In this document: piece by piece, positions 1 through 5,202 of the stretch
How positions within the stretch are numbered: the stretch's first letter is position 1
How the letters are laid out: each line of letters starts with the position of its first letter
Virus record (IMG/VR): IMGVR_UViG_3300006072_001582
Source: a virus
DNA length: 13,403 nucleotides
Reading direction: 5' to 3' (one strand)
Notes under the pieces: generated by a model
What the model saw: only the letters and a program-made list of their open reading frames with translations
Databases searched by the model: none
Told to the model about the DNA's origin: nothing
Made by a program: the position numbers and the translations under genes

Positions 1-120
1 GGTGTCGACGTACTCCCCGTTATCGTACTTGCGCACAGGGGCAGTTGACTTCCGGCACCACATCTGCTCATCTTCATTGATGAGGTAGACGGAACCGCTG
101 ATCGTTGTTACTTCCTTCAT
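1..120 (-). CDS. hypothetical protein, 5' portion only (N-terminus MKEVTTISGSVYLINEDEQMWCRKSTAPVRKYDNGEYVDT...). It runs off the window start.
   Basis: The reverse complement of 1-120 reads ATGAAGGAAGTAACAACGATC... in an open frame to the window edge. ATG is at 118-120, preceded by GAGGAGG 5 nt upstream. It shares an identical 48-nt leader and first 7 codons with the gene at 200-568. Confidence 0.5.
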   Translation of the reverse strand, partial: MKEVTTISGSVYLINEDEQMWCRKSTAPVRKYDNGEYVDT

Positions 121-147
121 AGTGTCCTCCTCAGGACTGGTTTAGTT
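100..147. repeat. copy A of an exact 48-nt direct repeat (minus-strand sense: aactaaaccagtcctgaggaggacactATGAAGGAAGTAACAACGATC), spanning RBS, start codon and the first 7 codons
   Basis: The plus-strand string gatcgttgttacttccttcatagtgtcctcctcaggactggtttagtt occurs identically at 100-147 and 548-595. Flanking sequence diverges immediately on both sides. Confidence 0.9.
126..132 (-). promoter_or_regulatory. Shine-Dalgarno GAGGAGG for the partial gene at 1-120
   Basis: cctcctc on the plus strand is GAGGAGG on the minus strand, 5 nt upstream of the ATG at 120-118. Confidence 0.5.
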
Positions 148-199
148 GGGTTGAGCCCGTTGGGTGGGGTGGAGCTCATACCCCTTGTGAACCGAGCTG

Positions 200-568
200 T
201 TACTGCTCAGCCTGAGCAGCGTTGAGCTCAGCCATAGCAGCGTAGAACTTAGCCCAAGCAGCCTTGACCTCAGGCTTAGACAAAGCAGCGTCGTACTTAG
301 CCAAAGCAGCGTGGTACTCAGCCCAAGCATCGTCGAACTCAGCCTCGGCAGCCTTGAACTCAGCCTGAGCAGCGTAGTACTCAGCCTTAGCAGCGTCACG
401 CTTAGCCCAAGCAGCGTCCTGCTTAGCCTCGTACTTAGCCTCAACAGCCTCGTACGCAGCCAAAGCAGCCTCGTACTCAGCCTTAGCCTCAGCAGTCATG
501 AGCTCAGCCGCAGCAGCGTAGTGCTCAACCAAAGCCTTAGCAGCGTCGATCGTTGTTACTTCCTTCAT
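200..568 (-). CDS. Ala-rich (about 45% Ala) acidic protein, probably alpha-helical, built on a 7-residue repeat with the consensus pattern x-A-A-x-A-x-aromatic
   Basis: 122-aa ORF with ATG at 566-568 and TAA at 200-202, preceded by a GAGGAGG RBS at 574-580. Aromatic residues (Y/F/W) recur every 7 residues at positions 32, 39, 46, 64, 71, 78, 85 and 92, and again at 54 with an 8-residue gap. The heptads read AEYEAAL, AAYEAVE, AKYEAKQ and so on. The overlapping frames 142-444(-) and 311-601(+) are low-complexity shadows of the same repeat. Confidence 0.7.
   Translation of the reverse strand: MKEVTTIDAAKALVEHYAAAAELMTAEAKAEYEAALAAYEAVEAKYEAKQDAAWAKRDAAKAEYYAAQAEFKAAEAEFDDAWAEYHAALAKYDAALSKPEVKAAWAKFYAAMAELNAAQAEQ
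215..545. repeat. imperfect 21-nt periodic tandem repeat at the DNA level, underlying the heptad repeats of the 200-568 protein
   Basis: Units of the form agcagcgt(a/c/g)gtactcagcc(t/c)tagc / cagcctcgtac recur about every 21 nt (for example 281-301, 302-322, 365-385, 386-406). The base composition is dominated by gca/gcc/gcg strings. Confidence 0.6.
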
Positions 569-595
569 AGTGTCCTCCTCAGGACTGGTTTAGTT
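548..595. repeat. copy B of the exact 48-nt direct repeat (leader, RBS, ATG and first 7 codons MKEVTTI) in front of the 200-568 gene
   Basis: Identical to 100-147. Upstream and downstream sequences are unrelated between the two copies. Confidence 0.9.
574..580 (-). promoter_or_regulatory. Shine-Dalgarno GAGGAGG for the gene at 200-568
   Basis: cctcctc at 574-580 on the plus strand, 5 nt upstream of the ATG at 568-566 on the minus strand. Confidence 0.55.
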
Positions 596-677
596 AGCTG
601 ACTGCCATCATCAGGCCGTAGGCATCACCCTACGACGACCACAACATCTCCCGACGTGATGATTTCGGCATTGCGTA

Positions 678-863
678 CTACTTCTTGGCTGTGTACAGGA
701 CTGCAGCCACGAACACCACGAAGGTGAACGACAACGAGACCGTGAGTACGGTCTGTGCCTGCCCCATGGGTGTGTACCACGAGATCATTGTGTTCACGAA
801 CGATACTGCGAACGTGAACGCAAAGCTACCAAGGAGCAGGGAAATCAGCTGAAAACGCTTCAT
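678..863 (-). CDS. small membrane protein (61 aa) with two predicted transmembrane helices and a short basic C-terminus. A holin-like role is possible but unproven.
   Basis: The ORF is MKRFQLISLLLGSFAFTFAVSFVNTMISWY TPMGQAQ TVLTVSLSFTFVVFVAAVLYTAKK. It has two hydrophobic stretches of about 20 aa separated by a short polar loop, and ends in KK. A purine-rich stretch (AGAAAGAGA) lies upstream of the ATG at 861-863. Confidence 0.5.
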   Translation of the reverse strand: MKRFQLISLLLGSFAFTFAVSFVNTMISWYTPMGQAQTVLTVSLSFTFVVFVAAVLYTAKK

Positions 864-3376: not shown

Positions 3377-3769
3377 ATGTCAAACAACTGTGACTGTGAA
3401 ACTTGCAAGAACATAGCAAAGTACAGTGATACTACAGAGAAAAGTGCATATGTCTCCCGGTTTAAGGAGAGTATTGCCCAGATTTCCTCTCTTTCAGATG
3501 ATTTCTCCATCGATAAGCCAAAAGATGACGATGAAGACCACACTTATCGTATTAACGTAAGTGAATACTGTCAGCATGACGGTGTTTTTGTAGAATATTC
3601 AAGAGAAATCACCTTTTCTGCTTTCCAGATGATCATGGAAGAGCTTTTTTCGTCAGATGAAGACGATTTTGACCTAGATAACGACGAATATGAAGATGAT
3701 ATACGCGTTTTTGGCAGTTTAGACGAAGTTATTGACTACCTTCAGCAAGATAGAAGGGAAAAAGACTAA
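3377..3769 (+). CDS. highly acidic small protein (130 aa) with an N-terminal C-x-C-x2-C motif and Asp/Glu-rich C-terminal half
   Basis: The ORF follows the promoter and RBS above. It reads MSNNCDCETCKN..., then DDDEDH, SSDEDDFDLDNDEYEDD. The stop overlaps the next start (TAATG at 3767-3771). Confidence 0.75.
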   Translation: MSNNCDCETCKNIAKYSDTTEKSAYVSRFKESIAQISSLSDDFSIDKPKDDDEDHTYRINVSEYCQHDGVFVEYSREITFSAFQMIMEELFSSDEDDFDLDNDEYEDDIRVFGSLDEVIDYLQQDRREKD

Positions 3770-4191
3770 TGACCGTCGAAGAACACGACCAGAACATCAC
3801 TCATCATTACACCGTTCACTATCCACCTCACCCAGAGCGTGAAGATGACCCACATTACGTCGATTTTCACCATTTCCGTGAGAAAACGAAGGCAACAGCT
3901 AAATGTGCTATCGGTGAACACCGCAATGACTTCAGTGAGTGCGACTCTGAGCACCCTTTGGAGCTTCACCACACTCATATTGAGTTCTCATTGCAGAATG
4001 GCGTCGATCTTAAGTGGCTCGAAGTCGATTACCCCGGCGTTAGCGACCCAGACACCGTTGGTGCATGGGTAGAGAGCGCAACAAACCTGGAATGGCTATG
4101 CCTTTTCCACCACAGAGGTCATGGTGGCAAACACGTCACAGCTTACAGTGACTTTGAGGCAGCAAAATACGTGAGAGGACTCATCAAATGA
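3769..4191 (+). CDS. His-rich HNH-like nuclease fold protein (140 aa)
   Basis: The sequence ...CAIGEHRNDFSEC...LELHHTHIEFSLQNGVDL...ATNLEWLCLFHHRGHGGKH fits the HNH pattern: C...C, HH, N, then N-L-x-x-L-C-x-x-H-H...H. It is translationally coupled at both ends (TAATG at 3767, ATGA at 4188). Confidence 0.55.
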   Translation: MTVEEHDQNITHHYTVHYPPHPEREDDPHYVDFHHFREKTKATAKCAIGEHRNDFSECDSEHPLELHHTHIEFSLQNGVDLKWLEVDYPGVSDPDTVGAWVESATNLEWLCLFHHRGHGGKHVTAYSDFEAAKYVRGLIK

Positions 4192-4379: not shown

Positions 4380-4834
4380 TGAATTGGAAAAGAAGATACG
4401 CAGCTGAAGATACCTTTGGTTATGGTGATCCACACTACTTTGAGAAGCTGATTGATCACGCCAACTCAGGCAACCCCAAGCTTATTCAAAAGAAGCATGT
4501 TGATGATGCTAGGCGACACGGTATTACCGAAGACGAAATGATGCATGCCTATACCCAGGGTCACAATATCAGTTTATATGTTAGTGCACGTGCACGCAAT
4601 GATCCATGGCTTGGTGGCCCAGAAGCTTTAGAGCCCAGACTGCTAGCTACACATGATGAAGCGATTGACGCTCTCAACAAAAATGTTATTCCCAATCACT
4701 ATAGCTTGCTTAGATCAGTTGGAGAAACAATAGTCAATGGACGTCATAACCCCAACCCAACACCGCTGAGCCACGATGCTGCTGTAGCAAAATCAGGCAA
4801 GATGACTCCGTCAGAACGACAGAAATACTTCTAA
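4379..4834 (+). CDS. hypothetical protein (151 aa), paralog 2 of the WSKRYAAE-motif family
   Basis: N-terminus MNWKRRYAAED. I prefer the start at ATG 4379 over the upstream in-frame ATG 4358 because it reproduces the paralog N-terminus and has GGAGAAG 6 nt upstream. TAATG overlap at both ends. Confidence 0.7.
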   Translation: MNWKRRYAAEDTFGYGDPHYFEKLIDHANSGNPKLIQKKHVDDARRHGITEDEMMHAYTQGHNISLYVSARARNDPWLGGPEALEPRLLATHDEAIDALNKNVIPNHYSLLRSVGETIVNGRHNPNPTPLSHDAAVAKSGKMTPSERQKYF

Positions 4835-5202
4835 TGTCTTGGTCAGAACGTTACGCTGCTCGTCCTGACCAATGTCAGCTCTGTGGTGCATCAGATGATG
4901 GCACCCACACAATCGTTAGCAGCGGTAGGTGCAAAGACACTACCGATTGCGAGAACACGCAGAAGTACTTAGCAGAGAACCCACAGCCAGAGCCTCCTAA
5001 GAAAACTAGGAAAGCACCTTACGTAGACCGCAAGGGTATGGCTGCATGTGCTCATGGCGACTGCCAAGGTAAGAAGTACGAAGCAAAATACATGCATTGG
5101 TCTGATTCTTCAGTGCCAAGGCCATATTGCAACACTCACTCGTTCCTTGCAGGCAAAACTGGTTTGACTTTTAGTCAATGGAAAGATGTTTATGGGAGAT
5201 AA
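4834..5202 (+). CDS. Cys-rich basic protein (122 aa), paralog 3 of the WSKRYAAE-motif family
   Basis: N-terminus MSWSERYAARPD, then CQLCG...GRCKDTTDC...CAHGDCQGKKY...YCNTH. TAATG overlap with the upstream gene. Confidence 0.7.
   Translation: MSWSERYAARPDQCQLCGASDDGTHTIVSSGRCKDTTDCENTQKYLAENPQPEPPKKTRKAPYVDRKGMAACAHGDCQGKKYEAKYMHWSDSSVPRPYCNTHSFLAGKTGLTFSQWKDVYGR

Follow-up and report, generated by a model that had tools for sequence, protein, structure and literature searches.

In the window analysed here, which comprises the 13,403 nucleotides (nt) of the virus record IMGVR_UViG_3300006072_001582, a 48-nt element stands in front of two otherwise unrelated small minus-strand genes, and our work suggests that it probably serves as a portable gene start. 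Both copies of this element, called the module in the following, read AACTAAACCAGTCCTGAGGAGGACACTATGAAGGAAGTAACAACGATC in the minus sense (R1 and R2, Table 1). No further copy was found in the window with up to three mismatches allowed, and 200 dinucleotide-preserving shuffles gave no match by chance. Within the repeat, GAGGAGG-ACACT-ATG supplies the Shine-Dalgarno sequence and the start codon of the gene that follows, both towards the 3' end of the element. R1 opens gene A, which is Ala-rich and built on a 21-nt repeat, and R2 opens gene B, which lacks this periodicity; in a BLASTP comparison only residues 1-15 of the two proteins align, an alignment that is carried by the seven residues MKEVTTI. 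On the 5' side, the first base of R1 directly follows the end of a match to the type II hammerhead ribozyme, and R2 is preceded by a different conserved element, S. The initial annotation had already described the perfect identity of the two copies, their unrelated surroundings and the first residues common to two different proteins, and the exact search, the flanks and the protein comparison agree with it in these respects. Over 7177 of 7177 positions the window is identical to the metagenome contig L001 (window position = 7178 minus L001 position), which runs on beyond base 1 of the window. The same arrangement is present in six contigs (L001, L003-L006 and L044, the last of which stops within gene B) from different samples of the Joint Genome Institute (JGI) and the European Nucleotide Archive (ENA) and from different assemblers. 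At least seven independent metagenome assemblies contain the arrangement, and since it recurs in this way, it is not an accident of assembly.

The module belongs to a family of Ala-rich genes. A metagenome scan with the pattern GGAGG-N3-8-ATGAAGGAAGTAACAAC returned 21 loci, and outside two contigs from another biome every one of them heads either an Ala-rich heptad-repeat gene or gene B. These two contigs (L028 and L043, with a 686-aa protein starting MKEVTTM) were judged to be chance matches, as was the single unrelated match among reference genomes of 185k species, which lies in a metagenome-assembled genome of the Bacilli with 34% GC; scans of IMG/VR found no copy of the module. In the related loci that were fetched, at least 18 distinct Ala-rich coding sequences of 30-182 aa begin with ATGAAGGAAG(T/C)AACAA, and their common start is the same 17 nt, ATGAAGGAAGTAACAAC. 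Such genes often form two or three tandem copies per genome that share the module. What lies upstream of the start is variable: the leaders are of the kinds ggaggacac(t), ggaggtgagaat, ggaggtgaaact and ggagaaaca, and the preceding element may be a hammerhead, S or a tRNA-like piece. Family members that were caught without the exact pattern start with MKEATTI or MKEVTMT, each with one change, or with the different heads MTNFDVF and MTKLYVY. The Ala-rich family thus natively begins with MKEVTT and its codons, whereas gene B is the graft, an outsider that has come to carry this start. To this extent the account of the initial annotation needs correction, as the module is not neutral between the two genes; the proposal made there to look for more copies in related genomes proved rewarding, given the module in front of the Ala-rich genes and gene B of the related contigs.

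Gene B has moved recently between lineages of these viruses. We compared the lineages s1 (the window and L001), s2 (L007-L016, with L007 from the same sample as L001) and s3 (L034). With R for the module and Ala122 for gene A, the order is hammerhead-R-Ala122-S-R-B-hammerhead-C-tRNA in s1 and tRNA-like-R-B-hammerhead-R-Ala98-S-R-Ala71-S-TM48-hammerhead-106aa-C-tRNA in s2. Homologues of gene B form only two other clusters, one of them in s2; the cluster P0002 is 85% identical, and all three variants of gene B keep MKEVTTI. The s1 and s2 versions agree in 83 of 86 codons with no synonymous and three nonsynonymous differences, as compared to 74 synonymous differences in 242 codons and 49 in 140 codons for backbone genes of the same two lineages, which are about 77% identical overall and about 57% identical at third positions. 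The lack of synonymous differences next to such diverged backbone genes argues for a recent transfer of gene B rather than for selection. Its near-identity begins at the ATG, and the leader upstream is in each lineage of the genome's own type. After the stop codon of the s1 gene B, the first 14 nt (TAACAAACGCCGAA, the 5' edge of the hammerhead) match the s2 hammerhead that follows gene B, whereas stem I of the same ribozyme matches instead the s2 hammerhead that follows TM48; thus, the s1 gene B fills the slot that is held in s2 by Ala71-S-TM48. Judged from these alignments, the left junction of gene B is in the module and the right one in the hammerhead. Comparable breaks are found elsewhere: The block R-Ala122-S is 98.2% identical to s3 (120 of 121 codons in gene A), and this homology starts exactly at the first base of the module, to the left of which s1 has the hammerhead and s3 has S; for S together with R2, the identity to the S-R segment of L034 is 98.8%. 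Moreover, contig L002 follows L001 for 5745 nt with 99.93% identity until it diverges 1 nt before R2, beyond which it carries the gene of a 47-aa basic protein, as does s3. Thus, in the comparisons of s1 with s2, of s1 with s3 and of L001 with L002 the edges of the module coincide with breaks in homology. A recent recombination or exchange at the element, as had been considered at the outset, is borne out by the different place of gene B in the two lineages, by its lack of synonymous divergence and by these breaks.

Table 1. Features of the locus and related elements. Positions refer to the window unless a contig is named.
Feature	Position	Strand	Description
Module copy 1 (R1)	548..595	-	27-nt leader with Shine-Dalgarno sequence, then ATG and six codons (MKEVTTI); heads the Ala-rich gene A
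Module copy 2 (R2)	100..147	-	Same 48 nt; heads gene B, which is unrelated to gene A
Shine-Dalgarno hairpin GUCCU-GAGG-AGGAC (predicted)	572..585 (R1), 124..137 (R2)	-	5 bp; Shine-Dalgarno sequence in the loop and the 3' arm
Gene A	200..568	-	122-aa Ala-rich protein on a 21-nt (7-residue) repeat; member of the MKEVTT-headed family (open reading frame and 21-nt periodicity)
Gene B	1..121 (first 40 codons; leaves the window at base 1); whole gene L001 7058-7318	-	86-aa ORFan behind R2
Gene of a predicted membrane protein	678..863	-	61 aa; cistron upstream of the hammerhead
Type II hammerhead ribozyme	596..670	-	Match to Rfam RF02276; directly upstream of R1
Other hammerhead copies	L001 7323-7385, 9190-9252; L007 10266-10340, 11184-11246; L026 1691-1753, 2093-2167		
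Element S (GGGGUAUGAGCUCCACCCCACCCAACGGGCUCA)	148..185	-	Conserved inter-cistronic element between gene A and R2
S in relatives	L007 10670-10710, 10960-11000; L034 862-899, 1296-1342; L036 4540-4580		
tRNA-like pieces	L007 9910-9965, 11629-11665; L034 474-525; L033 4500-4548		GGUUCGAUYCC T-arm; between cistrons

The leaders indicate how the copies of one genome came to be identical. Both leaders of s1 read CAGTCCTGAGGAGGACACTATG (within it CCTGAGGAGGACACTATG), and all three leaders of s2 read CAGTCCT(T)AAGGAGGACACATG. Hence the paralogous copies of one genome resemble each other more closely than they resemble their orthologues in the other genome, a pattern characteristic of gene conversion or recent recombination. 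A consensus scan of positions 1-1500 of the window found no sigma-70-like promoter in or beside either copy, so that the element is a translation-start module rather than the promoter-proximal element that the initial annotation had named as one possibility. The reading that we regard as probable is that the module, native to the Ala-rich family, was recombined in front of gene B, that the 48/48 identity stems from recent recombination or gene conversion between the copies of one genome, and that selection for an open and efficient initiation region probably adds to it. The module would then be a portable 5' gene unit, made up of an A/C-rich spacer, the Shine-Dalgarno hairpin, the AUG and the seven codons of MKEVTTI; it would provide a strong and open translation start for whatever follows and would act in effect as a homology patch that permits cistrons to be exchanged in frame. 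Such exchanges could proceed by homologous recombination within the module (over 21-48 nt of identity), within hammerheads and within S, and gene B would have been spliced in by a left crossover in the module and a right crossover in the hammerhead after gene B. The hammerhead upstream of R1 would cut the polycistronic transcript and leave a 5' hairpin and the module before gene A. Observed directly are where the module occurs, where the junctions fall and how identities and substitutions are distributed; the mechanism of recombination, the translational role and the cleavage are inferred.

Several observations speak against this reading or limit it. First, L040 as well as L033/L038 carry unlike leaders within one genome, and since these leaders have not been homogenised, gene conversion is not universal. 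Second, the homology that is available for the left crossover is short, with 21-48 nt. Third, most members of the family were gathered with a pattern that demands the exact 17-mer, and the conservation of the head at the nucleotide level is therefore in part a matter of ascertainment. Fourth, the Shine-Dalgarno hairpin is predicted at -7.4 kcal/mol, which is no better than shuffles (z = -0.73). Finally, the haplotype seen in L002 may be deceptive: three contigs from different samples (L002 5762-5857, L045 2919-3014 and L046 1750-1845) share one endpoint, which lies 96 nt inside the gene of the basic 47-aa protein that stands in place of R2 and gene B. Such a common endpoint suggests either a branch of the assembly graph at a strain polymorphism or a chimeric join, and haplotypes of the L002 type could therefore be chimeras formed through the approximately 450 nt that are shared with s3.

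How much of the identity is due to selection has to be weighed in its own right. It is conceivable that the element acts in cis as an RNA site, for example for ribosome loading, as the target of a small RNA or as a translational operator, that it is kept by selection for co-regulation, and that recombination is incidental. This idea finds support in the codons of the head: these are GAA, GTA and ACA, and in the bodies of 18 family genes GAA encodes only 15 of 221 Glu residues, GTA none of 31 Val residues and ACA none of 20 Thr residues. No synonymous variant of codons 2-5 was seen among the 18 family genes, most of which were collected by the exact-match pattern. Since the A-ending codons of the head are avoided in the rest of these genes, the initiation region is probably also under selection that contributes to its conservation. 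Moreover, the Shine-Dalgarno hairpin recurs with compensating changes, as UCCCU/AGGGA in L001 at about 9003 and as CACUU/AGGUG in L023, and the GUCCU/AGGAC class of leaders is kept in at least five lineages. The hairpin is absent from some leaders of the family, and the modelled pairing and its variants hint that it is a real feature. It resembles a terminator on the antisense strand only; on the sense strand it is not followed by a U-run. The whole 48-mer was also considered as a structured RNA, and this candidate was dropped since no fold of the module and its flanks had a better energy than shuffles. Against a cis-acting site as the sole cause, the leader varies from lineage to lineage, yet all copies in s1 agree and so do those in s2, which fits conversion or recombination better than independent purifying selection. 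Other lineages use quite different leaders (ggaggtgagaat, ggagaaaca), and some use other heads such as MTNFDVF. Above all, selection cannot account for the complete lack of synonymous differences over the whole of gene B. Co-regulation by a cis-acting site is thus an unlikely explanation for the two copies. It is tempting to speculate, and we consider this just as unlikely, that the module is an adaptor in a "punctuated" operon, in which a self-cleaving or RNase-processed RNA element (hammerhead, tRNA-like piece or S) would release each cistron. The R leader together with the MKEVTT head would then be needed to load ribosomes on the transcripts with a 5'-OH end and also to mark all products with the same N-terminal tag, for instance for packaging, export or turnover. 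If this were true, any open reading frame (ORF) recombined behind the module would be expressed and routed alike, and S, which occupies the slot of the hammerheads, could be a new self-cleaving or processing motif.

The peptide itself might be what is conserved: MKEVTTI could be a functional N-terminal signal (for capsid targeting, secretion or as a degradation tag), with the identity of the nucleotides being secondary. The same seven residues do stand on unrelated bodies and in every variant of gene B including P0002, the divergent heads of the family keep the pattern M-x-x-x-x-[TV]-[FYI]-E-A-A, and the internal proteins of phage T4 are diverse save for a conserved targeting sequence (PMC3012670). 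Yet a signal peptide leaves the identical 27-nt untranslated leader and the missing synonymous variation unexplained, a protease-site motif like that of T4 is not evident, and the genes lie in an array of tiny ORFans rather than among recognisable head genes. As the explanation of the repeat, a signal is therefore quite unlikely; as an additional role of MKEVTTI, it may exist. Very improbable is the idea that genes A and B arose by an ordinary tandem duplication of which the 48 nt are the last similarity left. The Ala-rich family does form tandem paralogues (two to three per genome) with a shared module, but gene B has no similarity to gene A past residue 7 and no 21-nt periodicity, it is found elsewhere in the array in s2, and a decaying duplicate would not hold 48 of 48 identical positions with sharp edges. 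Decayed duplicates with a 48-mer confined to this locus had been named in the initial annotation as the finding that would speak against exchange; nothing is shared beyond MKEVTTI, further copies exist elsewhere, and the duplicate reading is contradicted by the data. Likewise contradicted, and scarcely credible, is a metagenome assembly artefact that joined two strains through a common repeat, for although the samples contain several related lineages and some contigs have breaks close to the locus, both the 48-nt repeat and the 86 nt of S plus R are below the final k-mer size of the assembly, contigs of different samples and pipelines carry the identical join (100% over 4.6-5.3 kb), and the s1 gene B is an allele distinct from that of s2 (3 differences).

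The preferred reading, i.e. exchange of genes behind a shared start, concerns a locus that is an array of minus-strand cistrons of 40-150 aa, separated by structured RNA elements that may be a type II hammerhead, a tRNA-like piece or S. The gene content is phage-like, with PHROG matches, a tRNA and a nearby HNH endonuclease, and the hosts of the module are a group of uncultured phages from freshwater bog lakes. The HNH endonuclease gene (PF13392) lies at the distal end of the small-gene array, at L001 9448-9867. The tRNA gene is found at L001 7724-7794, just past base 1 of the window, and at L007 12023-12093; it scores 57 bits with Rfam and is called "tRNA-???" by ARAGORN, with an irregular anticodon loop. 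A blastn search of positions 1-1400 of the window against the GenBank phage collection gave no match. For gene A, there was no match in Pfam, PHROG or PDB, and a protein homology search with the Ala-rich gene was likewise negative, probably owing to compositional filtering. Gene B had no Pfam match above the cut-off and none in PDB; nothing usable came from Pfam, PHROG and PDB for the two genes, a Vault_4 match being below the cut-off. The AlphaFold model of gene B (pLDDT 52) is unusable and too poor to judge residues 1-7 as a separate tag.

The Ala-rich genes are peculiar in other respects as well. Near-identical alleles may differ greatly in length, with 30 versus 100 aa for L024 323-415 and L026 (reverse complement) 1135-1437, and 121 versus 182 aa for the pair L027 271-819 and L034 927-1292; these differences look like the gain or loss of 21-nt repeat units in frame. 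Their codon use is extreme, with GCT in 552 of 576 Ala codons. Gene A and Ala98 are separated by 30 nonsynonymous and 1 synonymous changes, and gene C (L001 7413-7709 versus L007 11709-12008) shows 24 nonsynonymous and only 1 synonymous codon change. From such counts, the genes of the array may be under diversifying selection.

The RNA elements between the cistrons deserve attention as the other boundary of the exchanges. The hammerhead of the window scores 31.5 bits, below the gathering score of 37 for RF02276, and the alignment to this family shows a canonical core in the type II order (GAAA, GUC, CUGAUGA). Two sister hammerheads in L026 are above the threshold (38.3 and 37.5 bits), and six IMG/VR contigs that contain an 18-mer from its 3' half carry type II hammerheads with 37.6-60.6 bits. 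In 8 distinct variants, all 13 tested base pairs are formed in every sequence, 6 of them with compensatory changes, as compared to slid controls, in which only 32-52% of the cells were paired. Self-cleavage is predicted to occur after the C at position 637 of the window, with the 3' product starting at 636. Hammerheads are found between the small cistrons at a frequency of two to three per 3 kb. In two of them (L001 7323-7385 and 9190-9252) the pair next to the cleavage site is U15.1-A16.1 instead of the usual A15.1-U16.1, the flip being compensated. Moreover, two or three type II hammerheads lie within about 1.1 kb in the unrelated viral contigs L017 (8229-9369; IMG/VR 3300007960_000436) and L021 (223-1362), and the same 3' half, CCUGAYGAUGGCAGUCA, in these contigs indicates that this subtype is widespread in viruses.

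In every lineage examined, element S is found again behind small genes, Ala-rich ones among them, where it takes the slot that hammerheads fill elsewhere; neither Rfam nor IMG/VR gave a match to it. Modelling suggests that it could form an H-type pseudoknot between the loop GAGCUC and a downstream GGGCUC, and a C-to-U variant would keep a G-U pair, with little variation among the copies. The tRNA-like pieces include a fold without a D-arm and a minihelix of acceptor and T-arm that ends in GCCA (fold z = -3.07). ARAGORN called none of them as a tRNA, and Rfam gave a weak mascRNA-like match of 29.5 bits; they may be processing signals for RNase P and RNase Z. In the lineage of L036, a 9-bp hairpin (UGUCAUGAC-N6-GUCAUGACA) lies just 5' of the Shine-Dalgarno sequence before each Ala-rich gene (3480-3510, 4030-4060, 4775-4810 and 5150-5180), with a covarying variant GUCAUAG/CUAUGAC; such hairpins would add a fourth kind to the inter-cistronic elements.

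The closest known system are the PeSL (promoter-early stem-loop) cassettes of T4-type phages, repeated regulatory elements that mediate the shuffling of ORFans (Arbiol et al. 2010, PMC2839356; Comeau et al. 2014, PMC4122927). As in these cassettes, short conserved composite elements with a stem-loop (a predicted one in the module) are repeated between small ORFans of a hyperplastic region and end in a Shine-Dalgarno sequence and start codon, there are two to three copies of the module per genome, and the endpoints of indels and replacements between close relatives lie in the elements. Unlike PeSLs, the module has no sigma-70-like promoter, its hairpin is not terminator-like on the sense strand, its patch reaches 21 nt into the coding sequence so that swaps yield N-terminal chimeras, and the other boundary of the cassette is a hammerhead or S rather than another PeSL. 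The promoter that is missing here is the defining feature of a PeSL. We class the module not as a PeSL but with the short conserved gene-boundary elements that mediate mosaicism in phages. The parallel to T4-like phages drawn in the initial annotation thus holds as an analogy with element-mediated gene shuffling, whereas nothing marks this phage as T4-like. The internal proteins of T4 provide a second comparison: these highly diverse small proteins share a short N-terminal capsid-targeting sequence, are packaged into the prohead and are then cleaved (PMC3012670). MKEVTTI similarly heads genes A and B, which have no other similarity; in contrast to the T4 sequence, whose function is established, any role of MKEVTTI as a signal is putative, the untranslated leader is shared too, and no obvious (L/I)xE prohead-protease site was seen after the head on reading the sequences. 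As for the ribozymes, multiple hammerheads flank individual genes of variable identity in prophages (Perreault et al. 2011, PMC3088659); these are of type II with a pseudoknot between loop I and the 3' tail, and their cleavage would yield single-gene mRNAs from a polycistronic transcript (PMC3088659). Type II hammerheads between short genes of variable identity are also what we find, but the earlier study concerns ribozymes and not a shared translation-start module (PMC3088659). At the present locus, the hammerhead abuts the module and doubles as the other recombination boundary, and tRNA-like pieces and S stand in equivalent slots.

The locus shows the exchange of small phage genes unusually clearly and at nucleotide resolution: a short exact patch made of a ribosome-binding site and the first codons would let an unrelated ORF drop in frame, and a ribozyme would give the other boundary. 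Since lineages that co-occur in a single lake time series differ in how they arrange the same cassettes, they form a natural system in which one can ask how much homology phage recombination needs, how frequent swaps are in the wild and whether initiation regions double as recombination linkers. The fast-changing Ala-rich proteins and ORFans, with many nonsynonymous and almost no synonymous differences, are candidates for functions in host interaction or anti-defence. Short conserved patches of homology at the gene boundaries where lambdoid phage mosaics are joined have reportedly been proposed (Juhala et al. 2000; Clark et al. 2001) to guide homologous module exchange between related phages. 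Such patches are usually intergenic and imperfect, whereas the module described here is exact, includes seven codons and is tandemly repeated in one genome. Seen against these systems, the locus is a clear but not unprecedented case of the swapping of small genes at short shared sequences.

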